DNA of 64,000 bases from Agarilytica sp. (GTDB lineage Bacteria > Pseudomonadota > Gammaproteobacteria > Pseudomonadales > Cellvibrionaceae), in the NCBI GenBank assembly GCA_033852165.1, contig JAWSUZ010000004.1:4692-68691 (forward strand), read 5' to 3'. Below are positions 1 to 43,320 of this stretch, piece after piece. The position numbers and the translations under genes are program-made. A model generated the notes under the pieces. It was given only the letters and a program-made list of their open reading frames with translations, did not search any database and was not told where the DNA came from. Within the stretch, counting starts at the first letter, position 1. Each line of letters starts with the position of its first letter.

Positions 1-2879
1 CCAGAACCGTCGGCGAAAGCGTAAAGGAAGTTTGTCGTCGCGCGGCCTGCTACTACATGTGCATAGTTGCTGGAGGTAAAGTCGCTACAGGGTTCCGGAG
101 TTGGTGTAGGAGTCGGAGTCGGAGTCGGAGTCGGTGTGGGAGTTGGTGTAGGAGTCGGAGTCGGTGTGGGAGTTGGTGTAGGAGTGGGTGTTCCACCGCC
201 CGCAGCATCGGTTGAACCATTCAGCGCAGAACTTTGCGCAGACTCATTTCCACTGGTATCTGTTGCCGATACGGTGAAGCTGTAAGTCGTGCTTTCCGTT
301 AACCCGCTAACAACGACTGAATTACTTGTGGAGGTTGTGTTTAACGTACCGTCCATATACAAGCTGTAAATAGAGAGGTCGATATCACTGACAACGTTCC
401 AAGTGAGAGTAATGCTTGTCTCGCTGGTATTACTGATGGCCAAACCGCTGGGTACGACAGGAGGAGTCGTATCGTTGCTGGTAAAGTCCGCACGGCGATT
501 ATTATCGAAGAAAAATTGCGTAACAAATGCCGGGTAATCAATTGTGGAATGGTTGGTGTATGCGCCGCCCGCTTCATCGTTACCTGCAGGCCATGCATGG
601 TCTAAACCTGTCACCATTATTTTCGATACGCGAACACCATTGACATCACTCCAGGTCTCTTCTGTACCGCCACCTGTTATGGGGTTTGACCCGCTGTCTT
701 TACTGACGTTATAGACATTTGCCATCGCTGCAGCGTCTAGCTCTGCATAGGCTTGACCGACCAGAAAATCCGAAGTGCCGTGAACGACTGACGTTAACTG
801 AGTGTTAAAATCGTTATCAGATGTCGAAAAGTTCAAGCAGGTATTTGCCACAGTGCTTGCGGTAGTGCCGCCAGGTACAGAACTAATTTGTCCGGAAGTC
901 GTGCCAATTGCTGGGCCTGCATTAATCCCAATACCGGCAAATATTTCAGGGGCTAAACAACCCATAACAAAGGTTTCACTGCCGCCAGAAGAAAGACCTG
1001 CAATATACACTTGGTCCGGATCAATATTGAGGCTGCTATTGGCGATTAAGCTATTAGCCAAATCAATCAAATTGTCGTCATGTCGGCTGGGGTTTGTTGA
1101 ACTGTGATTAGAGTCGTAATAATCCCAGCAAGCTGCAATCACACCACCATTAGGAGCCATTGGCGCAACCACAACCATTCCGTATTCGTCGGCTTCGTCT
1201 TCCCAGCCCCAGTTGTCTCGAACCACTTCGTTGTCTTGTGAACATCCGTGCAAGCTAATCATCAATGCGCGTTGGCCGTTGCTTGTGGCTGAGTTAGGTG
1301 TATAGATGTGAACTTCCATTCCATCTAAGTTGCCATCAGTTGTCCATTCGCCAGGGGTTGATGAACCGCCACCGGAACCACCGCCAGATCCGCCACCCGA
1401 ACCTCCGCCCACATTGGGATCAACGTCAGTCCATGAACCGTCTATTAATTCCCATAAAGTGAACGAATCGATGAAACCATACTTTTCGCCCATTGCCAGG
1501 TAGCCGTCTACGTCGAGTCGGCCCGCGGTATAGTGATCAGTTGCGGTTCCGGAAGCGCTAGGGGCGATGTATTCAAGGGCTGTTGTGGTGAAGTTAACCG
1601 TTGTAGACGCGGCAGATTCATTCTCACATTTATCCACAGATTTCGCATAAATACTGTAAGCGCTAGAAGGACTTAGGCCGGAAACTGTAATCGTATTGGT
1701 TGCAGAAAATCCTGCAGAGCTACCGTCGGTGTTATAAATGTTATAGCCTTTAAAGTCGGATTCAGAATTTACATCTGCGCCCAATATTGCGTATTTATCG
1801 TGTACATCATCAGCGCTCAAATTGGCTGGAACAGCTGGAGGCGTTGTATCGTTGGGATCTTCGCAAGCGCCGAATCCGCTTAATGTATAGTTCTCAAAAA
1901 ATGCCCAGATATATTCAGAAGCACTGGGGCCTTGGCCCTCTGCCCATAAAGGTGTGCTCGTATCGTCACCGGTCCAGTAATGGCCTTGGCCGTAGCTAGC
2001 CGAGTTACCGGCCACACCCGCGTAAAACATTGTTTTAACTAAAGGATCGCCTGCAGTATCGTTATACGTTGTGAGCGTGCAGCTAATGCCTTCGGTTGTA
2101 CAATCTTCGGTTCCATCAGAGCTGAGGTCTGCACCCCACACCGAAAGATGAGAGTCTCGAATTAATTGTCCGCCCGTAATCATCACCACGGTATCGTTAG
2201 AGGAATGCACAACCAGTGTTGGCACCGCACGCGCGTAGTTTAATTCGGCATTAATTTTATCAATATGAAATTGTAATGAATTAAATTGGTCGGCGGTGAC
2301 GGATGTTGAACCGTCGCCATAGGCTAGGGCTTCAACAGGAGCCATTGCAGCCCAATAGTCGTTGTAGGCAATGCCAGCCGCAACCGTCATGGCGCCACCG
2401 CTGGAGACACCGGTTATATAACGTCTTTCTGAATCGATGTTGTAATTGGATTCCACCTGAACGGCCATATTGTAAAGATCGTCGACCTCGCCGTTGCCAC
2501 CTTCTTGAACATGGTTTGAAAACCAGTAGCCCCAGCAATTTTCACTTCGATTTTCGGTAAAGCTAGTGACAAAAGGAAATACAACGATGACGTTATTTTG
2601 GTCTGCAACTAAATCTAAATTCCAAAGGTTACGTGCATCATCGTGATCCATCGCGCAGCCATGTAAGGCAAATATCATGGGAACCGCAGTGTTGCCATCG
2701 TACGATTGAGGTACATAAACCTTGTATTCCCGAGTGCGTGACCCGTTATAGGAATAATTCTCAACAGAACCACTACCCGTCATTAATTGTGCTGTAGCCG
2801 GTGAGGACGCAAAAACACCCAAAGTAACAGCGGTGAATAATTCTTTACGCCACTTAAACATCGATTTTAAAAACGTCAT
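1..2879 (-). CDS. phaZ: Extracellular short-chain-length PHA (PHB) depolymerase with two tandem catalytic domains; 3'-partial (runs off the window edge)
   Basis: Hand translation from ATG at 2879 is open for 959 codons to the edge. Signal peptide; CD1 with LHGC, GVSSG (2397-2411), HSSND, GHYW; FN3; SBD-like TATDHYTAGRL; Gly/Ser linker; CD2 with LHGC, GLSSG (984-998), HGTSD, DHAW; FN3; (TP)16; SBD-like SSNYAHVVAGRA. Confidence 0.92.
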   Translation of the reverse strand, partial: MTFLKSMFKWRKELFTAVTLGVFASSPATAQLMTGSGSVENYSYNGSRTREYKVYVPQSYDGNTAVPMIFALHGCAMDHDDARNLWNLDLVADQNNVIVVFPFVTSFTENRSENCWGYWFSNHVQEGGNGEVDDLYNMAVQVESNYNIDSERRYITGVSSGGAMTVAAGIAYNDYWAAMAPVEALAYGDGSTSVTADQFNSLQFHIDKINAELNYARAVPTLVVHSSNDTVVMITGGQLIRDSHLSVWGADLSSDGTEDCTTEGISCTLTTYNDTAGDPLVKTMFYAGVAGNSASYGQGHYWTGDDTSTPLWAEGQGPSASEYIWAFFENYTLSGFGACEDPNDTTPPAVPANLSADDVHDKYAILGADVNSESDFKGYNIYNTDGSSAGFSATNTITVSGLSPSSAYSIYAKSVDKCENESAASTTVNFTTTALEYIAPSASGTATDHYTAGRLDVDGYLAMGEKYGFIDSFTLWELIDGSWTDVDPNVGGGSGGGSGGGSGGGSSTPGEWTTDGNLDGMEVHIYTPNSATSNGQRALMISLHGCSQDNEVVRDNWGWEDEADEYGMVVVAPMAPNGGVIAACWDYYDSNHSSTNPSRHDDNLIDLANSLIANSSLNIDPDQVYIAGLSSGGSETFVMGCLAPEIFAGIGINAGPAIGTTSGQISSVPGGTTASTVANTCLNFSTSDNDFNTQLTSVVHGTSDFLVGQAYAELDAAAMANVYNVSKDSGSNPITGGGTEETWSDVNGVRVSKIMVTGLDHAWPAGNDEAGGAYTNHSTIDYPAFVTQFFFDNNRRADFTSNDTTPPVVPSGLAISNTSETSITLTWNVVSDIDLSIYSLYMDGTLNTTSTSNSVVVSGLTESTTYSFTVSATDTSGNESAQSSALNGSTDAAGGGTPTPTPTPTPTPTPTPTPTPTPTPTPTPTPTPEPCSDFTSSNYAHVVAGRATTNFLYAFADGS
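96..191 (-). repeat. Thr-Pro linker repeat, 16 x 6 nt, inside phaZ
   Basis: Degenerate hexamer array (ggagtc/ggtgtg/ggagtt) encoding (TP)16 on the minus strand. Confidence 0.95.
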
Positions 2880-3032
2880 ATTTAACAAGCCTCAAAGGAG
2901 AATAAAATGATTGCATGGGTAAAAGGTCAAACGCCCTCCCAGCGTATTATTTTTATTAATTATTTTTGGTGCGACAAAATGTGATTTGATATGCATAAAT
3001 CTACATAACGCTATTTAGATTAGTAGAGGATT

Positions 3033-3060
3033 TAGACCTAGGTCGTACGACTAAGGTCTA
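3033..3060. promoter_or_regulatory. 28-bp near-perfect palindrome made of two CrbR/ErdR-like boxes upstream of phaZ
   Basis: TAGAC-CTAG-GTCGT-ACGAC-TAAG-GTCTA. Each half resembles TAGAC-N4-GTCTA. About 155 bp upstream of the phaZ start. Confidence 0.6.
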
Positions 3061-3189: not shown

Positions 3190-3212
3190 GCATATCGATA
3201 GTATCGATATGC
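3190..3212. promoter_or_regulatory. Perfect 11-1-11 inverted repeat, candidate operator
   Basis: GCATATCGATA-G-TATCGATATGC in the AT-rich region upstream of phaZ. Confidence 0.45.
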
Positions 3213-3538
3213 TTGGCGAATGTTAAATCTATATATTCGATACCCTTCGAATTTGTTCGTATATACAAATGTTTTTTTATTACATGTAGGGAAAATATAA
3301 ATTTTTGGATTTTTGGGAATTTTAAAATAAATATGCTAAGGATATGGTGCACATTTTTGGCCCCTAACAGTTTATTGATAGGCTGTAGGTTTAGCAGATT
3401 AATTAAGGAGAATTTATTAATAAGTTGAATATAGGGAAGTTATTGGCAGTACTTTAAGCATGGAGCCAGGTTTAAATCTGGTACATAGGGGGATGGCCCC
3501 ATACGCAAAGTTACTTTGTACGAAATAATCCGTGTGTA

Positions 3539-7826: not shown

Positions 7827-7855
7827 AGGCTAAGATGTCTGCACATCTTAGCCTG
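7826..7855. terminator. 13-bp stem hairpin downstream of gcvP
   Basis: CAGGCTAAGATGT-CTGC-ACATCTTAGCCTG. Confidence 0.55.
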
Positions 7856-31040: not shown

Positions 31041-33407
31041 TTAATACTCATAGCCTAGAGTTAGAGTGATAGTGCGAGGATCGCCGTAGTAGCCGAGGAT
31101 TGCATCTTCGCCCGCTGTAGCTGGGAAGTTGTATCCGCCTGTACGATACTCTTCGTCAGCAAGGTTTTTGCCGCTAAGAATAGCTGTCCAGCTCTCTTCT
31201 GGAGATTTCCAAACTACGCTAGCATCGATTAGGTCATAGCTTTCCTGATCGATGATAGATTCAGTAGCTTCAAACATGCGAACATCATCACGGAATGAGT
31301 ATGCAATATTGAATTGCAAGCTGCCAGAGCTGCCAATATCGAGATTGTAAGAAGTTGCGAGTTGGAAGTTCATGTCGGGAGCGTTCTGCATGCCCCATGC
31401 TTCATAAAAAACACCATTCACAGTATTGTCGTTTGCTCGGTTTATGACGGTTAGTACTGGGTCGCCATCTCCGTTAACTGCACCGGTGGGAACTGTTTCG
31501 TCAACTGTGTCGAACTCGGCATCTAGCAGGCCTAGAGCCATGTTGATTGTCCAACTTTCAGTCGCTTGGAATGTAGCTTCAAGTTCAAGACCTTGGATTG
31601 TTGCTTCACCAGCGTTCACTACTGTCGACGAGAAGAATGATGGAGCGGGAGCCGGTGATTGAACAGTAACTTGCATGTCCGTGTAATCGGTATAGAAGAG
31701 TCCCAAGTTCAAGCGTAAGCGATTATCAAAGAGTTGAGTTTTTAGGCCTGTTTCATAAGTGACTACAGTTTCTGGGTCGAAACCTTCGACTGCATTTGGC
31801 TCAACAACTGCATCGGTACGCATATCAAATCCGCCAGACTTAAAGCCCTCAGAGTAAGATACGTATACTAAAGTCTCATCATTCAACTTGTAATCAAGTT
31901 TAATGGTGGGAGAAAACTCATTCCATGAATCATTCATGTCATTTTTATCAAAGTCTGTACGTGTAGCTACAAGCGTATCGTACTGGGCTAAGCCATGTGT
32001 TAAAGCTGAACCTTGGCTAGTTGTGCCTGGTATGGAGTTAGCTGTAACAATAAAGAATCGTTGAGCGAGTGCAGATTTTTCATCTCTTGTGTAGCGACCG
32101 CCGGCAGTTAGGGTTAATGAATCTGTGAAACTCCAGTTAACATTAACGTAAGCCCCGGTACTTTCGGTGTCAACTTCGCCGTTAACGCCGTTGCTGAATG
32201 CGCTGCCATCAAGAATTGCTCCTGAGAAATGACCAAATAGGGCATCAAATGCGCCAGTTGCAGTGCCGTCGTAGTAGAATAGGCCACCAACGATAGCAAG
32301 GCTATCCATTGTGTAGTTAATCTGTACTTCAGCTGTAGTTTGCTCGTCATTGTAAAATGCAGGAATGTCAAAAGAATCTAGTGGGGTACCGTCGAAGTCG
32401 ATAAACGTTTTAGTTGAGCCTGAGCGGTTAGCCAACACAAACTTTGATGAAAGTTCGTCGGTAATATCATATTGAACAGTTAAAGATACGCCTCGAGACA
32501 GAACTTCTTGCTCTTCAGTCATTCCACACTCTGAATCATAAACAGATTCGCGAGGTCCAAAAAATTCACCGTTAGGTCCGGCAACAGTGTTGTCCGCGAA
32601 ACGCGAACCACAACGGCTGTTTGAAGTATCTTCAAGAGCGTCAGCGGCTACGCGAATAAATAAAGAGTCGGTCGGAGAGTATTCAACAGAAGCTCGTGCC
32701 GCTTTAACGTCTTTATTGTAGTTTTCTTCTGTACGGTTGAAAGTTTGGTCAGCAGGGTCGTAGTCTTTATATTGAGTGCCGAAGCCGTCTCTTTTCAAGA
32801 TGCCAACTGCAAAGCCAAAATACAGCTCATCTTCGATAAGAGGTATTTGGTTAGCGACTTTAATGTCGTTTTGACCTGCAGTACCAACAGCAACTTTAAC
32901 GCTACCGCTGTGCTCGCCAGTCATTTTCTTAGTGATGTACTTAATCGCGCCACCAATGGTGTTTTTACCGTAAAGAGTACCTTGTGGTCCACGAAGGATT
33001 TCTAAACGCTCTAGATCCATAAGATCCATAACCGCGCCTTGAGGGCGAGCGATGTAAACGTCATCCAGATAAACACCGACGCCTGGCTCGAAACCCCAAA
33101 GAGGATCTTGTTGGCCGATACCACGGATGAACGCAGTAAGAGTAGAGTTAGTACCACGGCTAGCGCGCAATTGTGCGTTAGGAGTACTTTTTTCGATATC
33201 GATGATAGTTGATGCGCCAGCAGCTTCTAATTGAGCTGGAGAGAACGCAGTAATAGCAATAGGAACTTCTTGTAGGTTTTGCTCACGCTTCTGAGCAGTA
33301 ACAATAACTTCTTCTAGCTGAGGAGCTGCGAAAGTTGGTACCGAGATCGGTAACGCAATCGCCACTGCAACCGCAAGCGGATTTAAAAGTAATTTAGTTT
33401 TTTTCAT
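31041..33407 (-). CDS. TonB-dependent receptor
   Basis: Signal peptide, LEEVIVTAQKRE, plug motifs FIRGIGQ and LEILRGPQGTLYGKN, C-terminal LGYEY. Confidence 0.95.
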   Translation of the reverse strand: MKKTKLLLNPLAVAVAIALPISVPTFAAPQLEEVIVTAQKREQNLQEVPIAITAFSPAQLEAAGASTIIDIEKSTPNAQLRASRGTNSTLTAFIRGIGQQDPLWGFEPGVGVYLDDVYIARPQGAVMDLMDLERLEILRGPQGTLYGKNTIGGAIKYITKKMTGEHSGSVKVAVGTAGQNDIKVANQIPLIEDELYFGFAVGILKRDGFGTQYKDYDPADQTFNRTEENYNKDVKAARASVEYSPTDSLFIRVAADALEDTSNSRCGSRFADNTVAGPNGEFFGPRESVYDSECGMTEEQEVLSRGVSLTVQYDITDELSSKFVLANRSGSTKTFIDFDGTPLDSFDIPAFYNDEQTTAEVQINYTMDSLAIVGGLFYYDGTATGAFDALFGHFSGAILDGSAFSNGVNGEVDTESTGAYVNVNWSFTDSLTLTAGGRYTRDEKSALAQRFFIVTANSIPGTTSQGSALTHGLAQYDTLVATRTDFDKNDMNDSWNEFSPTIKLDYKLNDETLVYVSYSEGFKSGGFDMRTDAVVEPNAVEGFDPETVVTYETGLKTQLFDNRLRLNLGLFYTDYTDMQVTVQSPAPAPSFFSSTVVNAGEATIQGLELEATFQATESWTINMALGLLDAEFDTVDETVPTGAVNGDGDPVLTVINRANDNTVNGVFYEAWGMQNAPDMNFQLATSYNLDIGSSGSLQFNIAYSFRDDVRMFEATESIIDQESYDLIDASVVWKSPEESWTAILSGKNLADEEYRTGGYNFPATAGEDAILGYYGDPRTITLTLGYEY

Positions 33408-33715
33408 GATGCACACCTGTGTGGTTATCTATTAGTTGATGTTTTATTTTTTTGATGATGTGTTTATCCGGAGCATTCTAATGCTATTCCACTTCTTGCA
33501 GCAAGCTTAAATATCGTGTCTTTTTTAATTTACTGTTTACTAATAAATGATGCTCACGACGCACCTGCAGCAAATCTGATCATTAATTAACCTTATTTTT
33601 AATTTTCTACTGTTTTCTAAAATTCACTTCACTCAAGGTTGTAGCGGAACTACACTCATCACTCGTTAACACTATCTTTAACAATAAAAGTAAATAGATT
33701 TTTAAAAGGCCAATT

Positions 33716-35026
33716 ATGATTAGTGTGTTGGGATTAATAACGGCGCTTGTGTTGCTCGTAATTTTAACGATCCGCGGAATGAATTTGATGATTGCGGCGC
33801 CATTCTGTGCGATTCTTGTTGCATTGACCGGGGGTTTGCCAATTATTCCTGATGTTACGCAGACTCAAAGCTTTATTACTGTGTATATGGATGGCTTTGC
33901 TGGGTTCCTTGGCGCATGGTTCTTTATGTTCTTGCTGGGTTCTTTGTTCGGTAAGTTTATGGAAGAATCGGGCGCTGCCGATAAAATCGCGTTAACAATT
34001 GTTGATTGCCTGGGAATGAAAAACGCCGTTGCGGCAATTATTATTTCTTGCGCGATTATGACTTATGGCGGTGTTAGCTTATTTGTTGTGGCGTTTTCCG
34101 TTTACCCAATGGCTGTCAGCTTATTTAAAAAGGCGGACTTACCACGCCGGTTTATTCCTGCTGCGATGGCTTTTGGTTCTGTAACTTTTACGATGACTTC
34201 AGCGGGATCGCCAGAAATTCAAAACTGGATTCCGATTAAGTATCTGGGTACTACCCCGTATGCGGCATGGGAAGTTAGCTTGTTTGTCGCGATCTGTATG
34301 GCGTCTTTTGGCTTTTGGTGGCTAAGTCGTATGGTTAAAAGTGCTCTTGCTAAGGGGGAGACGTTTTCTGCGAGAAAGGATGACCCAGAGCCAAAGGACT
34401 TGGATTCCCTTCCTCCTTTTTGGGCTTCTATTGTTCCGATCATCACGGTATTGATTATCACGTTTATCTTTCATGAGGAATACGCGCAATATTCGCTGGT
34501 TATGTCTTTGGCCTCCGGCTGCCTGGCGGCTTGGTTTGTGACCCATCGCAGTATGGAGGGCTTGGATCGGGTTGTGGCACAGGGCACAACTGGAGCCGTT
34601 ATTGCGATTGCGAATACTTCGGCGGTTGTTGGTTTTGGGTCGGTAGCGAAAGTCTCACCGGCATTTGATATAGCGGTTGATGCTATTACTAGCTTGCCGG
34701 GCAACGAGCTGATTGGTGCGGCGATTGCGGTAACGTCTATTGCTGCTATGACGGGGTCAGCATCCGGTGGTCAGAGTATTGCGTTACCGGTATTGGCGCC
34801 ACACTATTTAGACGCCGGTGTTGATCCGGAGGCATTGCACCGAGTTGTGGCGATATCGTCCGGGGCTTTGGATAGTTTGCCTCATAACGGCTATGTGGTG
34901 ACTACAATTCGAGCAATTTGTCATGAGACACACAAGGCTGCATATGGCCCCATGGCCGCATTGACGGTGGTTATTCCTATGATGGGAACCATTTTAGCTC
35001 TTGCCTGCTTCATTCTATTTGACTAA
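33716..35026 (+). CDS. GntP-family permease, probable D-3-hydroxybutyrate permease
   Basis: LLGSLFGKFMEESGAA, LTYGGVSLFVV, AGSPEIQN, GSASGG, DSLPHNG; context. Confidence 0.88.
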   Translation: MISVLGLITALVLLVILTIRGMNLMIAAPFCAILVALTGGLPIIPDVTQTQSFITVYMDGFAGFLGAWFFMFLLGSLFGKFMEESGAADKIALTIVDCLGMKNAVAAIIISCAIMTYGGVSLFVVAFSVYPMAVSLFKKADLPRRFIPAAMAFGSVTFTMTSAGSPEIQNWIPIKYLGTTPYAAWEVSLFVAICMASFGFWWLSRMVKSALAKGETFSARKDDPEPKDLDSLPPFWASIVPIITVLIITFIFHEEYAQYSLVMSLASGCLAAWFVTHRSMEGLDRVVAQGTTGAVIAIANTSAVVGFGSVAKVSPAFDIAVDAITSLPGNELIGAAIAVTSIAAMTGSASGGQSIALPVLAPHYLDAGVDPEALHRVVAISSGALDSLPHNGYVVTTIRAICHETHKAAYGPMAALTVVIPMMGTILALACFILFD

Positions 35027-35363: not shown

Positions 35364-37412
35364 ATGGTGCTAAATAGTAAGGGCTATAGGCTGTCGTTAT
35401 TCGTCCTGTTTTCCGCGGTGATTTTTACGTCATGTGCTGTCTCACCTGTGAAGTCTAGCAACGGGCAAGCTCAACACCGTACGGCCTTTATGTTGGGGGG
35501 CGTCTCAAAGCTCTACTATGATGGAGAGTTTAATGACCTAGCCTATGGTGGCTTGGGTCTTGATGCTATTCGTAATGGTGAGGCGCCTGTTGTTTCCGAC
35601 CCGCTACGTCCTTCGATCTCTGATTTACGCCGTTTGGCGATCTATCACAATATTCGTTCATTGTCTGCGATGTCGGATAATGCCGGTTATGGCTCTCTTT
35701 ACGCCAATTTTGATCTAGCTGCTAGCCCGGTTAGCGGTTACGAATTTATTGCTCCTTTACTCTTTGATGATGGCCAAGTTGCCTCTGTTTTCATGCTTCA
35801 GGTACCCGATAATTTTGATTGGGACCATCCTTGCCTTATTTCGGCGGCGTCCTCCGCATCACGAGGAATATACGGAGCTATAGGGGTTGTAGGGCTTTGG
35901 GGCTTGGATAAAGGCTGTGCGGTGGTGCATTCTGACAAGGGCACTGGTACAGGGTTTTACTGGTTAAGTGATGATCAAACAGTTGATGTAAGTGGGCAGA
36001 TTAATAAGCCCAATGAAAATTCTCATTTTATTGTCGATAATGTCAAACAGTTTGCTCAGGCTTACCCAAACAGGGTCGCAACAAAGCATGCGCATAGCCA
36101 AAGAAATGTGGGGCGACACTGGGGAGGGGCAGTTCTATCGTCAATAGAGTACGCATTCGAGTTGCTCAATTCTGAATTTGGCGGACAGAAAAGGTTAACG
36201 CCGGAAAATACATTGGTGATTGGGGCGGGGATCTCGAACGGAGGAGGGGCTGTAGTTGTTGCTGCCGAACAGGATAAATCGCAATTTTTCGACGGGATAG
36301 TTTTGGCCGCGCCGAATATTCCGGTACCGGCTGGATATGAGTATCAATATAAAAGTGGCGAAGCAAGGAGTAGACGAGCTGCTCAGGAGACTCGTTCCCA
36401 CAGGGTGACCGTACTTGTCGAAGTGGGTTTTAATCTGGCGCTTTACTTGCCTTGCGCTGCTTTGTTTAGTGGAGAGCCCACCCATCCTGAGGGTCTGAAC
36501 GCTCATTGGCAGGCATTACTTGAAACGAGATGCAATAAACTCAAAGCTGCCGGTTTATTGTCTGGAAAGTCCTTTCGGGAGCAGAGCTTTGAATCTCTCC
36601 AGGTTTTAATACGTAGGGGGTATCCTGAAAGCGCAAATACCATGGCAACAACATTTGCACGCAATTTGTTATGGAATTCTTTAATGCTGAGCTACACCAG
36701 TGATTTGGGAGGGTATGGGGTTGGCGATCATTTATGTGATTACAGCTATGCCTATGCAAACTCCGAGGGGGAGCCTATCGTCACTCCTGATGAGGTAAAG
36801 GCGCTAGTTTTTGGTCGAACCCGGGGCAGCTTGCCAGCGTTGGGTATTCAGATTATGAACGACGCCAGTGCAGATGGCCCACGTGATCTTATGCATTCAG
36901 TTGATGCGGATGGTGTATTGGATTTGGGCTTTGATAATGTCATGTGCATGGAAAAACATTTGTTCTCTAAGCGTGTGCAAGACGGGTTAACGGCCATTCA
37001 AGCCTCAGGTAATTTGCAGGGGCTTCCCGCAATTATTGTGCATGGCGAAGCCGACAATATCATTCAGGTTAGAAATACGTCGCGAGCCTATGCCGTATTA
37101 AACTCTGAAGTGGAAGATAATTCTTCTTTGGTTTATTACGAGGTTAAAAATGCGCAGCATATTGACCGGCTGATTGATTACCCTCCATATAAAACGCAAT
37201 ACATCCCCTTGCAGTTCTATTTCGAAGAAGCGCTCGACTCTATGTATGAACACCTAACCGAAGGTACAGCTATTCCCGCGAGCCGTGAAATTTTAACGGT
37301 TCCGGCTACCGAGAAGGAAGAAAAGTTGACACGTAAAAATTTACCCTCTATTACTTCTGGTAATACGAACCCTATCGAAATTAAAAGTGGAGTTTTGGTT
37401 TTTGCCAATTAA
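35364..37412 (+). CDS. D-(-)-3-hydroxybutyrate oligomer hydrolase, probable lipoprotein
   Basis: Lipobox-like FTSC; RRLAIYHN, SSASRGIYGAIG, SDKGTG, ATKHAHSQ, ISNGGG, IIVHGEAD, QHID. Confidence 0.9.
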   Translation: MVLNSKGYRLSLFVLFSAVIFTSCAVSPVKSSNGQAQHRTAFMLGGVSKLYYDGEFNDLAYGGLGLDAIRNGEAPVVSDPLRPSISDLRRLAIYHNIRSLSAMSDNAGYGSLYANFDLAASPVSGYEFIAPLLFDDGQVASVFMLQVPDNFDWDHPCLISAASSASRGIYGAIGVVGLWGLDKGCAVVHSDKGTGTGFYWLSDDQTVDVSGQINKPNENSHFIVDNVKQFAQAYPNRVATKHAHSQRNVGRHWGGAVLSSIEYAFELLNSEFGGQKRLTPENTLVIGAGISNGGGAVVVAAEQDKSQFFDGIVLAAPNIPVPAGYEYQYKSGEARSRRAAQETRSHRVTVLVEVGFNLALYLPCAALFSGEPTHPEGLNAHWQALLETRCNKLKAAGLLSGKSFREQSFESLQVLIRRGYPESANTMATTFARNLLWNSLMLSYTSDLGGYGVGDHLCDYSYAYANSEGEPIVTPDEVKALVFGRTRGSLPALGIQIMNDASADGPRDLMHSVDADGVLDLGFDNVMCMEKHLFSKRVQDGLTAIQASGNLQGLPAIIVHGEADNIIQVRNTSRAYAVLNSEVEDNSSLVYYEVKNAQHIDRLIDYPPYKTQYIPLQFYFEEALDSMYEHLTEGTAIPASREILTVPATEKEEKLTRKNLPSITSGNTNPIEIKSGVLVFAN

Positions 37413-37415
37413 CGT

Positions 37416-40400
37416 ATGCTAAGCCAAGGTTATATTGCTCTCTGGTCGATTGGGTATCTGTGTATACTTTTTGTAATTGCGTTTTGGGGGGATAGTCTTC
37501 GGGAGCAGGCGATTCGCCGGTATAAGCCTATAATTATTGGTTTGGCGGTTACCGTTTATTGCAGTGCATGGAGCTTTCATGGTGTAGCTGCTCAGGCTGT
37601 TAGTAAAGGGTGGTATTTTCCTCCTACCTTTCTGGGGGCCATTCTATTGCTAGTCTTTTTCTGTCCCTTAATAAAAAAACTAATCGCGGAGAGTAAGCGA
37701 GCGAATATCACGTCCATTGCAGATTACCTGTCAGTGAGCTACGGAGGTTCCCGTACTCTCGGTGTTTTAATTACACTGGTTTCTATAGTGGTTTTGGTTC
37801 CTTATCTTGCTTTGCAATTGAAAGCGATTACTCAGAATTATCATTTGCTGGCAAGAGCTGAATTACCGTTTGATCAAGCTTTCACAGAAACCACCCACAT
37901 GGGTACGGCTTTTGTTGTTGCTCTCTTGTTGGGGGCTTTTGCCATGATTTTTGGCTCTCGCAACCAAGACGTTAGGGAGCATCATAATGGTTTAATGTTG
38001 GCTATTGCATTTGAATCGATAGTTAAGCTGGTGGCTTTTGTTGTATTGGCCTTGTTTGTATCGATGGTTATGTATGACGGCCTGGAAGATATTTTTTTCC
38101 AGGTGGCGCAAAATGATGTTTTGATGAAAGAACTCGTTGAGAGGCGTGAAGGTGATGGCGGTTACCTCACCGCCATGATATTGGGTTGTATTGCTATGGT
38201 GTGCTTGCCCAGACAGTTTCATGTGCTGGTTGTCGAGAGTGAAAATCCAAGTGATATTAATACCGTCCGCTGGCTTTTCCCTGTGTACCTGCTCGTTTTT
38301 GGTATGTGTGTTTTACCTGTAGCGTATGCGGGCATGCTGCTTTTTCATGACTTGGGAATTAGTTCTGACCAATATGTTTTAGGGATTCCACTAATTGCTG
38401 GCCGAGTTGACTTGGCTCTTCTAACCTATTTGGGTGGTTTTTCAGCGGCCAGTAGCATGGTGATTTTAGCTTGCGTTGCGATGTCGACAATGGCGTCTAA
38501 TGAGCTGGTTATCCCTTTTTTATCTCGCTTCAATTTAATTGATTTACAGAATAAAAATAGAGCGCATCGCACAATTAGAACGGTTCGTCGTTACGTTATT
38601 TTCACCTTGCTTTTGTTAGCGTATGGGTATTATCGATTACTTGGTAATCAGGCAAGTTTAGGTGCTATTGGCTTTTTGTCATTTTCTTTGGCCGCTCAAT
38701 TTTTCCCATGTTTGTTTTTCAGCTTGATATTAAAGTCAGATCGAAGGAGTGAATTGGCCGTTTCTGCAATTGTTGGTATTGCCGTGGGGTTAGGGGTTTG
38801 GTGTTACACCTTATTTCTTCCCGCGTTAGTGGATGCTGGGTTTCTTTCTCAGCAGTTTTTAGATGAAGGACCGTTTGGGGTTTCATGGTTGAGACCAACG
38901 GCGTTATTTGGCTTTGAGATTTTTAGTGATTTATCACATGGTGTGTTCTGGAGTTTATGGGCGAATGTAGTCAGTTTTATTTGCTTGTCGAAAAGTCCCT
39001 TAGCCTACTTTCGGGATGCGACGTTTAGCGAGGGGCGTGCAGCCACAATGCTTGAGTTAAAGTTATTATTGACGCGCTTTTTAGGCGTTGACCAGACTGA
39101 GTTAGCGTTGAAGGAATACCCTAAGTTGGCGGCTGCGCGCGGCTACGCAGATAGCGGCGATGTCAGCGTGGTCGAAAATATTCTTTCCGCTGTGGTGGGT
39201 TCAATATCAGCGCGAAATATTATTGAAACATCTTTTACGGGTGAAGCTGAAAATGAAAAGTTGCTGGATAAGGCCGCGCAAATATTTCAGTTTGGACGAG
39301 AATTGCTGCAGGAAAGTATCGATAATATTAGTCAGGGCATTAGCGTTGTTGATTCACAGTTAAAAATGGTTGCGTGGAATCGTGGTTATTTAGATATCTT
39401 TGAGTACCCGAAAGGCATGATGCACGTGGGCTGTAATGTGGCGGACTTACTTCGTTATAACGCAATATTAAATGGCCTGGAAGGGGGAGAGGTTCAGCAC
39501 TTTATTGATAAACGCTTGAAGTTAATGGCTTCAGGCAGTGCCTATATTCATATCTACACACATTACACTGGACGGGTATTGGAAATCCAAGGGGCTCCTA
39601 TGGGAGAGGGAGGTTTTGTAACAACCTTTACCGATATTAGTAACTATCAAGAAACGGTTAGCACGTTAGAGGAAACGAGGGCAACCCTAGAGTCTCGCGT
39701 GAAGGAACGGACAGAAGAACTGCAGTTAGCAAATCGAAAATTACGTGATGCAAACCATAAAAAAACACATTTTTTGGCTGCTGCTGGGCACGATTTGATT
39801 CAACCTCTAAATGCCGCAAAGTTGTTTGCCACAGCACTGACCCATAAAGTAAAGGACCCTGAAACCACAAAGCTTCTTCACAATTTAGATCACTCTCTTC
39901 ATTCTGCAGATGCGATTATTAGTGAGCTCCTAGCGATTGCGAAACTGGATTCCGGGGAAATGCAGGTCAACGCGAAAACATTTTGTATTGGGGATCTACT
40001 GCGTTCGCTGCATAAGGAATTTTCTATCATTGCGCAAAAGAAGAATATTGAACTGCGTTTTTGCTATAGCTCTTTGGCAGTGACAACGGATGAGCAGTTA
40101 TTGAAACGAATTTTGCAAAACCTTTTATCAAATGCTATTCGCTATACCAATACAGGTAAAGTGATCATTGGTTGTCGGCGGTCGAAAACCACCAGTTGCA
40201 TTGAGGTGTGGGACCAAGGAAAAGGCATTCCCGAAAAAGAGGAAGAGAATATATTCAAAGAGTTTCATCGAATAGATAAAAACGAGCAAGACGGTGGCTT
40301 AGGTCTGGGCTTAGCAACTGTGCAGCGTTTGTGTCAGTTACTCGAAGTGAAAATCAAAGTGGAGTCTAAGGTTGGCCAGGGCAGTGTGTTTCGTATCGTG

Positions 40401-40862
40401 CTGCCGCGCACAGAAAAACGATATGTGTCTGCGTTAGATGGCGATGAGCAGGCTTCTCCTCGTGAATCTGTTTTGTCGGGGATGAGGGTTCTGTGTATCG
40501 ATAATGAAAGTACTATTCTTGATGGTATGAAGGCTGTGTTGGAGACTTGGGGTTGTGTTTTTTATGGGGTGACGGAGTGGTCGGATATTTTACCGTGGGA
40601 GCCGGATGCTTTACTTGTGGATTTTCATTTAAACGACGGTATTACCGGTATTGAATTAGCTGAGCGATTTCACGCTAAATATGGGGATGTTAAGCCGATC
40701 GTGGTGATTTCTGCAGATCAGAATAATGATGTTAGAGAGCAGGCAAAGTCGCGGGCTTATTTCTTTTTAAGAAAGCCGCTCAAGGCGGCTTCTCTTTGGT
40801 CTGTGTTGGCGCGTATCAATGATATGAAAAGCCTTGAGGGAACCGTTGCTCCTCGTCAATAA
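37416..40862 (+). CDS. crbS: SLC5(SSS)-STAC-PAS-histidine kinase-receiver hybrid sensor (CrbS/MxtR type)
   Basis: VYCSAWSF, SIADYLS..YG, LPRQFHV; STAC-like LLTRFLG..SAVVGSISAR; PAS; AGHDLIQPLNAA; C-terminal receiver. Confidence 0.9.
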   Translation: MLSQGYIALWSIGYLCILFVIAFWGDSLREQAIRRYKPIIIGLAVTVYCSAWSFHGVAAQAVSKGWYFPPTFLGAILLLVFFCPLIKKLIAESKRANITSIADYLSVSYGGSRTLGVLITLVSIVVLVPYLALQLKAITQNYHLLARAELPFDQAFTETTHMGTAFVVALLLGAFAMIFGSRNQDVREHHNGLMLAIAFESIVKLVAFVVLALFVSMVMYDGLEDIFFQVAQNDVLMKELVERREGDGGYLTAMILGCIAMVCLPRQFHVLVVESENPSDINTVRWLFPVYLLVFGMCVLPVAYAGMLLFHDLGISSDQYVLGIPLIAGRVDLALLTYLGGFSAASSMVILACVAMSTMASNELVIPFLSRFNLIDLQNKNRAHRTIRTVRRYVIFTLLLLAYGYYRLLGNQASLGAIGFLSFSLAAQFFPCLFFSLILKSDRRSELAVSAIVGIAVGLGVWCYTLFLPALVDAGFLSQQFLDEGPFGVSWLRPTALFGFEIFSDLSHGVFWSLWANVVSFICLSKSPLAYFRDATFSEGRAATMLELKLLLTRFLGVDQTELALKEYPKLAAARGYADSGDVSVVENILSAVVGSISARNIIETSFTGEAENEKLLDKAAQIFQFGRELLQESIDNISQGISVVDSQLKMVAWNRGYLDIFEYPKGMMHVGCNVADLLRYNAILNGLEGGEVQHFIDKRLKLMASGSAYIHIYTHYTGRVLEIQGAPMGEGGFVTTFTDISNYQETVSTLEETRATLESRVKERTEELQLANRKLRDANHKKTHFLAAAGHDLIQPLNAAKLFATALTHKVKDPETTKLLHNLDHSLHSADAIISELLAIAKLDSGEMQVNAKTFCIGDLLRSLHKEFSIIAQKKNIELRFCYSSLAVTTDEQLLKRILQNLLSNAIRYTNTGKVIIGCRRSKTTSCIEVWDQGKGIPEKEEENIFKEFHRIDKNEQDGGLGLGLATVQRLCQLLEVKIKVESKVGQGSVFRIVLPRTEKRYVSALDGDEQASPRESVLSGMRVLCIDNESTILDGMKAVLETWGCVFYGVTEWSDILPWEPDALLVDFHLNDGITGIELAERFHAKYGDVKPIVVISADQNNDVREQAKSRAYFFLRKPLKAASLWSVLARINDMKSLEGTVAPRQ

Positions 40863-40974
40863 GTGGCAAAGGTTAATTTAACTGATGCTTTTCTTCAAAA
40901 ATCCTTGGCTTTCAAAAAACTTTAGGGTGTCTTTAAAAATTGTGATTTTTTGTGAGGGCAAGGAAATACCACGC

Positions 40975-41135
40975 GGACACTAGCATGGATGCCAGTGCCA
41001 GGTCGCAGCATTAGCGCAGGAAGCGCGTAAGTAGAATAACGCAGGAGCAGTTATCGAGGAAGCCCGGTCCGAGAGTCTCAGTGTACATGGTGTACACCGG
41101 AAATCGAGTACGGAGCCGATGCCGTCATCGCTAAA
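40975..41135. repeat. REP-like hairpin cluster between the convergent kinase and regulator genes
   Basis: ACTAGCATGGATGCCAGT, AACGCAGGAGCAGTT (reverse complement of 18917-18931), GTGTACATGGTGTACAC. Confidence 0.7.
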
Positions 41136-41157
41136 AAGTATTTTTTAGAAATGCCCT

Positions 41158-41802
41158 TTAGTCGTTAGCAGGACTTTCAAATTTTTGTGAAAGTAAAATA
41201 ACTTCAGTGCGTTTTCTCAAGCCCAATTTCCGTAAAATCGCGGTTACATGGGATTTGACTGTCGTTTCAGTAATGTCGAGTTCAAAGGCAATTTGTTTGT
41301 TTAGCATGCCTTGGCTGAGCATTGAAAAAACACGAAATTGGTGCGGCGTCAGTGAGGCAACGCGACGAGCTATGTCTTTCAGTTCCTCATCTTCTTCGCT
41401 TATTGTTTTATCAAACCAGGGTTTGCCTTGAAGAAGGTCGCCAATCACTTTTTCCAGTTCGTTTGCATCTAAAGATTTAGAAAGAAAGCCGATTGCGCCG
41501 AGCTGCTCTGCATGGCTGATCACTTTTTGACTATTGTCCCCAGAAATCATTGCAACAGGGACTTCGGGAAAGTAGCCGCGCAAATTGACTAAACCGGCAA
41601 ATCCGTTGGTCCCGGGCATATGCAGGTCGAGAAGTACAAGGTCGGGATCAACATCTGACTCCAAATAGCTGTGAACTTCTTTAATGGTGTTGCATGAAAT
41701 ACATTCAACTTTTTGGGGTAAATTACTAAAATTATTAATCGTTTGTATAAGTGCGCTACGAAACAGCGGGTGATCGTCCGCGATGATAATTTTTATTGTC
41801 AT
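41158..41802 (-). CDS. LuxR/NarL-family response regulator (CrbR/ErdR type)
   Basis: IIADDHPLFRSAL, LLDLHMPG..GF, LTPHQFRV...LNKQIAFEL..TVKSHVTAILRKL. Confidence 0.9.
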   Translation of the reverse strand: MTIKIIIADDHPLFRSALIQTINNFSNLPQKVECISCNTIKEVHSYLESDVDPDLVLLDLHMPGTNGFAGLVNLRGYFPEVPVAMISGDNSQKVISHAEQLGAIGFLSKSLDANELEKVIGDLLQGKPWFDKTISEEDEELKDIARRVASLTPHQFRVFSMLSQGMLNKQIAFELDITETTVKSHVTAILRKLGLRKRTEVILLSQKFESPAND

Positions 41803-42000
41803 TAGGGCCTCAAATTAATCTACGACTCTAAAATGGTCGACGATTCATCAGGGTTGGTGTCGAAATATATTTGTCTCAAAAAATTCTGGCTTACAGTATC
41901 GAATTACTGACGCTCAGAACGCTGAGGCGTAAGAGTACAGTGTCGGGGTATAGAGGCATAAAGTACAGCGCAAAATTTTGCGTGGCAATGGCTCAATGGC

Positions 42001-42921: not shown

Positions 42922-42933
42922 AACATGACCGGG

Positions 42934-42956
42934 ATTGATAAATAATATAAATCAAT
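42934..42956. promoter_or_regulatory. LysR recognition site (T-N11-A)
   Basis: ATTGAT-AAATAATATAA-ATCAAT immediately upstream of the LysR start. Confidence 0.7.
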
Positions 42957-43320
42957 TCATCAGATAAATAAAATTGATAAATATAAGGGATTACTGCATT
43001 CTTATCAAACTCATCATAATAAGAACATTTGCGCCGCTGTCATTACCAAAATATTTGTAATGATGGGCAATCTACAAGTGGTTTGTGGGTCGTTGGTGTG
43101 GAGAGGCTAATTCTCTCTCAGCTATATACTCACTAAACTGTCTGCTAACCCAGCTATTAATGCTGTAGAGTGCGGTGCTTCAACAATTGATGGTCTGTAT
43201 TGTATTCGGATTTCTCTGCTCGCTAATCAAATCAAGTGAGAAGGGGGTATCGTCAATGATAACTAAGAGTTTGCCTCATTCGAGGCACGTTAAATACACA
43301 TTAAACTAACGGGGCTAATA

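Follow-up and report, generated by a model that had tools for sequence, protein, structure and literature searches.

The 64,000-nucleotide stretch analysed here in full (hereafter, the window) comes from Agarilytica sp. (assembly GCA_033852165.1, contig JAWSUZ010000004.1, positions 4,692 to 68,691 of the forward strand) and carries, at positions 3033-3060, a 28-bp palindromic box upstream of phaZ, a gene encoding a secreted poly-3-hydroxybutyrate (PHB) depolymerase. We favor the interpretation of this box as a tandem operator of the CrbR/ErdR type, consisting of two sites of the kind known as ACTU: the response regulator encoded at 41158-41802 probably binds it and activates the phaZ promoter, driven by the histidine kinase encoded at 37416-40862. 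The kinase/regulator pair belongs to a locus for the uptake of oligomers of 3-hydroxybutyrate (3HB). The ACTU operator, the CrbS/CrbR-like two-component system and the PHB depolymerase are all component kinds that are already known; what appears to be new is their proposed wiring.

Direct reading of the box gives TAGACCTAGGTCGTACGACTAAGGTCTA, with the halves TAGACCTAGGTCGT and ACGACTAAGGTCTA; a palindrome of two units about 155 bp upstream of phaZ had been noticed here in the original prediction, made from the sequence alone, and both its sequence and its coordinates were exact. Two 14-bp units abut, each with a perfect GAC-N4-GTC core, and the arms of the whole pair at 12 of 14 positions. The near edge of the box lies 154 nt from the phaZ ATG (2879, minus strand). 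A single unit is unremarkable: TAGACNNNNGTCTA with up to two mismatches is found 15 times in the window, against 17.6 expected, and the bare GAC-N4-GTC core shows no enrichment between genes (102 of 585 genome sites are intergenic, compared to an intergenic share of 15.8%). Many matches of the form TGTGAC...GTCACA are CRP-like sites, so that only extended or tandem forms are informative, and both of these bare motif counts, being no higher than chance frequency, were dropped as evidence. By contrast with the single unit, 28-bp palindromes with at least 12 of 14 positions paired number two in the window versus 0.2 +/- 0.4 in 20 shuffles. The genome-wide scan that had been proposed along with the original prediction returned a single strict tandem, GAC-N4-GTC-N(2-10)-GAC-N4-GTC, in the 5.4-Mb genome, namely, the box before phaZ; from base composition, we estimate that about 0.2 strict tandems with the 4-bp spacing are expected per genome. 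The 650-bp intergenic region around the box is single-copy in the genome, which rules out a repeat or a mobile element.

The ACTU site is an imperfect inverted repeat (G/T)AC-N4-GTC, that is, GACNNNNGTC or TACNNNNGTC (PMC5715377; bioRxiv 10.64898/2026.09.07.749794). It was mapped just 5' of the -35 element, at -52 to -36, in the acs promoter of Pseudomonas fluorescens, where further sites, tested or predicted, are associated with the actP operon, greA/PFLU5625 and a chemoreceptor gene, in addition to acs itself (PMC5715377); binding of ErdR to ACTU was later shown by electrophoretic mobility shift assay (bioRxiv 10.64898/2026.09.07.749794). Both units in the window, GAC-CTAG-GTC and GAC-TAAG-GTC, fit the (G/T)AC-N4-GTC definition, spacers included. 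The published examples comprise TAATACTAAGGTCGTCT, TACGACTAAAGTCTAAA and CTAGACTTACGTCCAAT, with TAAG and TTAC among their spacers (PMC5715377; bioRxiv 10.64898/2026.09.07.749794), and the TAAG and CTTA spacers of the present box match TAATACTAAGGTCGTCT and TACGACTAAAGTCTAAA. The consensus from which the prediction started, TAGAC-N4-GTCTA, is therefore close to the published site although stricter than its definition. A consensus promoter scan of the box region detected no strong minus-strand promoter. The hexamer TAGATT is a candidate -10 element. It would set the center of the proximal unit at about -49, which resembles the geometry published for P. fluorescens acs, but this placement is speculative.

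The genome encodes a single ErdR-like protein, which is the presumed binder of the box. Its best match among the NCBIfam models is ErdR (NF041830, 214 bits), followed by NarL (107 bits), and the next best protein of the genome reaches 84 bits on the ErdR model. The helix-turn-helix region is identical in 37 of 56 positions to that of Halopseudomonas ErdR-like proteins, which score 367-370 bits on the same model, and the recognition helix, TVK(S/A)HVTAI, is common to near-canonical ErdR. Within this helix, all eight regulators of the alignment have T181, V182, K183 and H185, and V186 and A188 are found also in the Halopseudomonas proteins but vary in the other rows of the alignment. By analogy with NarL, the lysine and the next residues of the recognition helix would read the bases. 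The conservation of the helix supports the predicted recognition of an ACTU-like site by this regulator.

The presumed sensor, a protein of 1148 residues, is encoded 3 nt after the stop codon of the 3HB-oligomer hydrolase gene. Its residues 7-473 match PDB chain 10ed_A, labeled 'histidine kinase' (E 8e-45), which is presumably the CbrA transceptor described in PMC13022988; Pfam SSF has no match in this kinase. The C-terminal domain is of the NahK/ErcS type (377 bits with the NCBIfam model). Residues 1-1133 are 37-39% identical to Halopseudomonas kinases encoded beside ErdR-like regulators, and this full-length alignment suggests the same architecture, possibly with a STAC linker. The tree of 11 kinases is star-like and gives no indication of whether the 3HB-linked pairs form one subfamily.

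The locus that encodes this pair lies approximately 28-41 kb from the box, with the regulator gene at 38 kb, and has the gene order TonB-dependent receptor, GntP permease, hydrolase, kinase, convergent REC+GerE regulator, followed by LysR, a bdhA-like short-chain dehydrogenase/reductase (SDR) and PhaC. All five sister genomes (G001-G005) contain orthologs of the pair, which is located beside a TonB receptor and GntP in G001, G003, G005 and Alteromonas sp. C1M14; the closest public relative of the locus belongs to the metagenome-assembled genome of Agarilytica sp. BHT04_PHB_gam1. In the three sister genomes examined for linkage (G001, G003 and G005), the TonB receptor, GntP and LysR genes are linked to the pair, as are the hydrolase gene in G003 and scoAB in G005.

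The sister species supply a positive control for the assignment of the box. In addition to the 3HB-linked pair, G001 and G005 encode a second, paralogous kinase/regulator pair (36-37% identity for the kinases and 44% for the regulators), and G002 encodes a weaker, partial one. The second pair of G005 is flanked by acs-2, a symporter of the DUF4212/VC_2705 type and a DUF294/CBS/cNMP protein with an exonuclease. Strict tandem GAC-N4-GTC boxes number four in G005 and three in G001, and are absent from G002, G003 and G004. Six of these seven boxes are found at acs-2 (both species), at the symporter/kinase junction (both species), at greA/cNMP-binding protein and at DcaP porin/Cache chemoreceptor. 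These are the same kinds of genes as those with ACTU sites in P. fluorescens, and the tandem ACTU box in this genus is, therefore, a specific mark of CrbR-type control. A weight matrix trained solely on eight acetate-locus sites of the sister species was scanned over the whole genome, and the two units of the window scored 18.6 and 16.7 bits, ranking 2 and 5 among all intergenic sites.

The acetate module, located at G005:C2:404000-420000 (L109) and on G001:C6 (L110), comprises acs-2, the DcaP porin, the CrbR-like regulator, the SLC5 kinase, the DUF4212 and VC_2705 symporter, the DUF294/CBS/cNMP protein and the exonuclease. It resembles the phaZ region of the window in its tandem GAC-N4-GTC boxes with similar flanks, and the distal unit of the window agrees in core and spacer with CGACCTTAGTCGA, the acs-2 box of G005; the differences are that the module and its regulator are not found in the present genome and that the spacing there is 17-18 bp start to start, compared to 14 bp here. 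The module was not found in G003 and G004 either, and searches of the present genome (G000) detected no second kinase, second regulator or acs-2. Thus, of the two paralogous pairs, this genome retains only the 3HB-linked one. The original prediction had spoken of an acetate-sensing system repurposed for PHB scavenging; the genus is better described as having two paralogous pairs of SLC5 kinase and regulator, of which one adjoins acs-2 and the symporter and the other the 3HB genes. The acs gene of the present genome (C8:88364) is of the acs-1 type and has no upstream box, and in none of six species is there a box within about 400 bp of the acs-1 start. The VC_2705-type symporter gene on C20 has no tandem box, and the neighboring kinase gene is gone.

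Further evidence is provided by the other PHB-esterase genes. The genome encodes about 24 Esterase_PHB proteins, including six large two-domain genes in tandem on C97 (C97:955-22679) and several single-domain paralogs of about 600 residues, with further genes on C77, C15, C9 and C43; the sister genomes show the same expansion. In an unbiased word test, CCTTAGTC/GACTAAGG came out at the top of 32,831 8-mers enriched 5' of PHB-esterase genes, with CCTTAGTC present in four of 23 upstream regions versus 10 of about 2,930 (p 5.9e-7, or about 0.02 after correction for 32,831 words). The word ACCTT[AG]GTC has 12 intergenic sites, six of which lie 5' of PHB-esterase genes, generally at a distance of 150-190 bp to the start codon; two of these six, on C79 and C80, are nearly identical to each other and are located about 470 bp from the start. 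One further site precedes a TonB receptor gene. Related ACCTTRGTC sites precede at least five PHB-esterase genes other than the phaZ at 3-2879. The upstream regions that contain the word share no other homology, which indicates that the word has been kept by selection rather than inherited through recent duplication. A second unit accompanies several of these sites at a distance of 18-19 bp, and double sites likewise precede the orthologous paralogs in G003 and G004, both of which lack the acetate module. The extended word AGAC-Y-W-W-N-GTC is intergenic in 21 of 53 cases (40%), compared to 12-17% for control words. The TAC-N4-GTA variant, in contrast, shows neither intergenic nor PHB enrichment (34 of 178 sites are intergenic), with one site near the ACTU-like site of the PHB gene C77b. 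Good single ACTU-like sites were also observed before three TonB-dependent receptor genes (G000:C43:29178, C83:22476 and C103:101189), one of them being the best intergenic site of the genome at 21 bits; these three may be further members of the same regulon.

The phaZ product itself has Esterase_PHB and fn3 domains in Pfam and matches the NCBIfam model of extracellular type 1 short-chain-length polyhydroxyalkanoate (PHA) depolymerases (NF050058) in two stretches with 358 bits, well above the cut-off of 150; the gene is 992 codons long in the genome contig, and the N-terminus of the protein, MTFLKSMFKWRKELFTAVTLGVFASSPATAQ, reads as a signal peptide. Its orthologs in G001, G004 and G005 (71-72% identical) each have one degenerate site at the position of the box, with 0-2 core mismatches (GACCTTAGTG, GACCTTGGTA and CACCTTGGCG). 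The surviving site corresponds to the distal unit, whose core, GACCTTAGTC, is retained in weakened form. Conservation of the motif upstream of orthologous phaZ genes thus extends to one weakened site in three species but not to the double box, which is accordingly lineage-specific.

Taken together, these observations suggest a mechanism in which the phosphorylated regulator would occupy the two neighboring GAC-N4-GTC units as two dimers and would activate the phaZ promoter, with its weak -35 element, just downstream of the box. The SLC5-type kinase, encoded directly behind the hydrolase, would drive the regulator and report the flux of 3HB, the likely signal being 3HB or a related short acid released from PHB. 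This would create a positive loop whereby oligomers produced by basal levels of the depolymerase pass through the TonB receptor, the hydrolase and GntP, signal via the kinase and the regulator, and elicit the production of more depolymerase. Given that the sole regulator of this family in the genome is the one in the 3HB locus, PHB breakdown products probably switch phaZ on. We infer the binding, the promoter geometry and the nature of the signal from sequence, and the sign of the regulation, activation, from analogy with CrbR. A broader scenario, which we offer tentatively and consider possible rather than probable, is that the kinase is a 3HB transceptor that, together with the regulator, runs a product-sensing positive loop over part of the many secreted PHB depolymerases of a marine genus that degrades plastic, the result of a regulon takeover in which the 3HB pair inherited the ACTU code after the loss of the acetate paralog and a new double box arose 5' of this phaZ.

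Several observations weigh against the assignment of the box to this regulator. The 14-bp spacing differs from the 17-19 bp seen in every other tandem in the genus, and the double box is not conserved, with a single weak site before phaZ in G001, G004 and G005. A good site is lacking before most of the 24 PHB-esterase genes, the six in tandem on C97 among them. The regulator scores below the NCBIfam cut-off for ErdR (214 versus 390 bits), that is, it is a family relative of ErdR and not an equivalog. Furthermore, there is no ACTU site anywhere in the 3HB locus. The two weaker half-sites proposed there in the original prediction do not hold up: the one at 41820-41842 is GAC-N9-GTC, which has the wrong spacing, and the one at 33635-33655 is a different palindrome, TGTAG-N5-CTACA. 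What the locus does contain are AGCATTCTAATGCT at 33472-33485, 56 bp 5' of the TonB receptor start, and GCGGAACTACAC at 33644-33655, 72 bp 5' of the GntP start, each of which is shared by four Agarilytica-like genomes and occurs at no other place in this genome. They are candidates for operators or promoter elements that act locally in the 3HB locus, and they could be the true operator of the regulator or that of the LysR protein.

Alternatively, the box might be the operator of another factor, for example, a NarL/LuxR-type protein such as those encoded at C123:79466 and C87:3476, a LysR-type protein or an XRE-like repressor, whereas the 3HB regulator would bind the elements at 33472-33485 and around 33644. 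This is the strongest of the alternatives, and still an unlikely one. It draws on the presence of further GerE-type regulators in the genome and on the four-species conservation of the receptor/permease elements, which occur nowhere else in the genome. Moreover, palindromes of the form GAC-N4-GTCGTACGAC-N4-GTC are found in unrelated metagenomic contigs, between small divergent open reading frames (ORFs) next to a Toprim-like protein, so that other proteins can use such sequences. However, none of the other regulators exceeds 84 bits with the ErdR model. The core, the spacing and the spacer of the motif all correspond to ACTU, the motif also matches boxes found at the canonical regulon within the genus, and the regulator of the 3HB locus has a recognition helix conserved with that of ErdR. 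Another possibility is that the box is a relic operator of an acetate-type CrbR that was lost together with acs-2, so that it now has no cognate binder or is subject to weak cross-talk. The other strict tandems are confined to genomes with an acetate-type pair, hence the box could belong to a regulator lost here; besides, its units are closer to the acetate-locus boxes (CGAC...GTCG/GTCTAA) than to the TAC/GTA variants before other phaZ paralogs, and the lack of ACTU sites in the 3HB locus fits as well. Nevertheless, all four GAC/GTC triplets are perfect, and the loss was not recent, since neither this genome nor G003, its closest relative, has the acetate module. In the species that have the acetate regulator, the phaZ orthologs carry weak single sites, the opposite of what would be expected of a relic, and ACTU-like double sites precede phaZ paralogs in G003 and G004, neither of which has the acetate pair. 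We therefore consider this explanation improbable.

We give equally little credence to the notion that the palindrome lacks a protein partner, being either a chance occurrence or an RNA hairpin in a long phaZ 5' leader, involved in attenuation, processing or stability. As RNA, the region does fold into a hairpin (-13.3 kcal/mol), the distance to the start codon is 154 nt, and single units are no less frequent than expected by chance. Chance, however, explains neither the 2nd and 5th ranks obtained with the independently trained matrix nor the enrichment of the same word before other PHB-esterase genes. As for an RNA element, no T-run follows the stem on either strand, which rules out a terminator, and in the paralogs, the units are 8-9 unpaired bases apart, with the variation preserving the GAC/GTC cores rather than the pairing of the stem. 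Compared with these alternatives, we continue to favor the CrbR/ErdR-type operator. The features on which this interpretation draws are listed in Table 1.

Table 1. Window coordinates of the box, the presumed target gene and the genes of the 3HB locus
Feature	Position	Strand	Basis or remark
Candidate -10 hexamer TAGATT, with a poor -35	2998..3003	-	sequence reading and geometry of the P. fluorescens acs promoter
Predicted tandem operator, 28 bp	3033..3060	.	two ACTU-type units, 14 bp center to center, together palindromic
Promoter-proximal unit TAGAC-CTAG-GTCGT	3033..3046	.	towards phaZ: ACGAC-CTAG-GTCTA
Promoter-distal unit ACGAC-TAAG-GTCTA	3047..3060	.	towards phaZ: TAGAC-CTTA-GTCGT
Secreted two-domain short-chain PHA/PHB depolymerase (phaZ), presumed regulated gene	3..2879	-	Pfam and NCBIfam; runs off the window start
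NarL/LuxR-type response regulator, ErdR/CrbR family, presumed binder	41158..41802	-	REC and GerE domains
SLC5-type transporter-like hybrid histidine kinase (CrbS/MxtR/CbrA architecture), presumed sensor	37416..40862	+	PAS_7, HisKA, HATPase_c, REC
3HB-oligomer hydrolase	35364..37412	+	Pfam 3HBOH, 498 bits; sole copy in genome
GntP-family permease, presumed 3HB importer	33716..35026	+	domain match; neighborhood with kinase/regulator pair conserved
TonB-dependent receptor	31041..33416	-	domain match; divergent from GntP permease

Several additional sequence elements were observed in the vicinity of phaZ and within the 3HB locus. About 130 bp farther 5' of phaZ than the box, there is a second palindrome, GCATATCGATAgTATCGATATGC, at 3190-3212 (also 3236-3253), and in G001, G004 and G005, arrays of ATATCGA(T/A) units occupy the corresponding location 5' of the phaZ ortholog. 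Of the 24 upstream regions of PHB-esterase genes, 10 contain ATCGAT, compared to 303 of 2,933 overall (p 6e-5), and these elements are probably the site of a second, unnamed regulator. The sole other 28-bp palindrome of the window with at least 12 of 14 positions paired, AGGCTAAGATGTctgcACATCTTAGCCT at 7827-7854, has a minus-strand gene on either side and resembles a terminator hairpin. In the 3HB locus, ATTGATAAATATAA is conserved in the divergent LysR/bdhA (or LysR/scoA) region of three species (42922-43320 in the window; L111:11712-11908; L112) and is likely a LysR box for 3HB catabolism, distinct from the ACTU sites. The convergent kinase and regulator genes are separated by a GC-rich structured stretch (40950-41140) resembling repetitive extragenic palindromes, and a similar inverted repeat is found 5' of the C20 symporter gene (L113:13760-13870). 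In another order, Alteromonas sp. C1M14 (NZ_JAHKQF010000013.1) has a comparable 3HB-type locus, where an SLC5 kinase and a convergent regulator are accompanied by a GntP permease (62% identical) together with a TonB receptor, an SDR and an alpha/beta hydrolase; its genome contains no Esterase_PHB gene and thus provides no independent test of the promoter.

A metagenome scan for GACNNNNGTCGTACGACNNNNGTC returned 120 unrelated contigs, many of which contain a repeated perfect palindrome. None of the 120 encodes phaZ, and the scan added no orthologous promoters. The perfect 30-bp palindrome TACGACATCGGTCGTACGACCGATGTCGTA, present on L123, L126, L132 and about 30 other loci, largely from a few related metagenomes (Ga0056115 and others), is a dispersed repeat, and ACTU-like 28-bp boxes between small ORFs and a Toprim-like protein were observed on L153, L163 and L198.

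Agarilytica is reported to dominate PHA plastispheres on the deep-sea floor and to encode more than 10 secretable depolymerases (PMC10817984); the text of that study does not mention two-component systems or transcriptomes. In the literature we searched, there is no named sensor or regulator of secreted PHB depolymerases, and the searched literature on SLC5/STAC kinases does not mention hydroxybutyrate. With an operator, a regulator and a sensor all designated, the sensing of bioplastic by marine bacteria becomes directly testable at the bench. If the proposed wiring is correct, a hydroxy acid derived from a polymer would be a fourth class of signals for SLC5/STAC sensor kinases, and an operator code would be seen to move between paralogous regulons.

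Among the known systems, RpuS/RpuR of Sinorhizobium, which responds to pyruvate, and CbrA/CbrB of Pseudomonas likewise combine an SLC5 domain with a histidine kinase in one protein and govern how a small organic acid or amino acid is taken up or used (PMC9100948, PMC13022988). They differ from the system described here in their regulators and operators, with CbrB being sigma-54 dependent, and none is tied to a polymer-degrading exoenzyme (PMC9100948, PMC13022988). The closest parallel is CrbS/CrbR (MxtR/ErdR) of Pseudomonas and Vibrio, with which the present system shares the inverted repeat (G/T)AC-N4-GTC 5' of the regulated promoter (PMC5715377; bioRxiv 10.64898/2026.09.07.749794), a regulator of the LuxR/NarL type whose recognition helix is the same, and a kinase that consists of an SLC5-like transporter domain, PAS, a histidine kinase module and REC. 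Unlike in CrbS/CrbR, the target of the box is a secreted PHB depolymerase gene rather than acs, actP or prp, the acs gene of this genome having no box, and the site consists of tandem units merely 14 bp apart. The pair is, moreover, encoded in a 3HB-oligomer uptake locus, which makes 3HB, rather than acetate, the likely signal.

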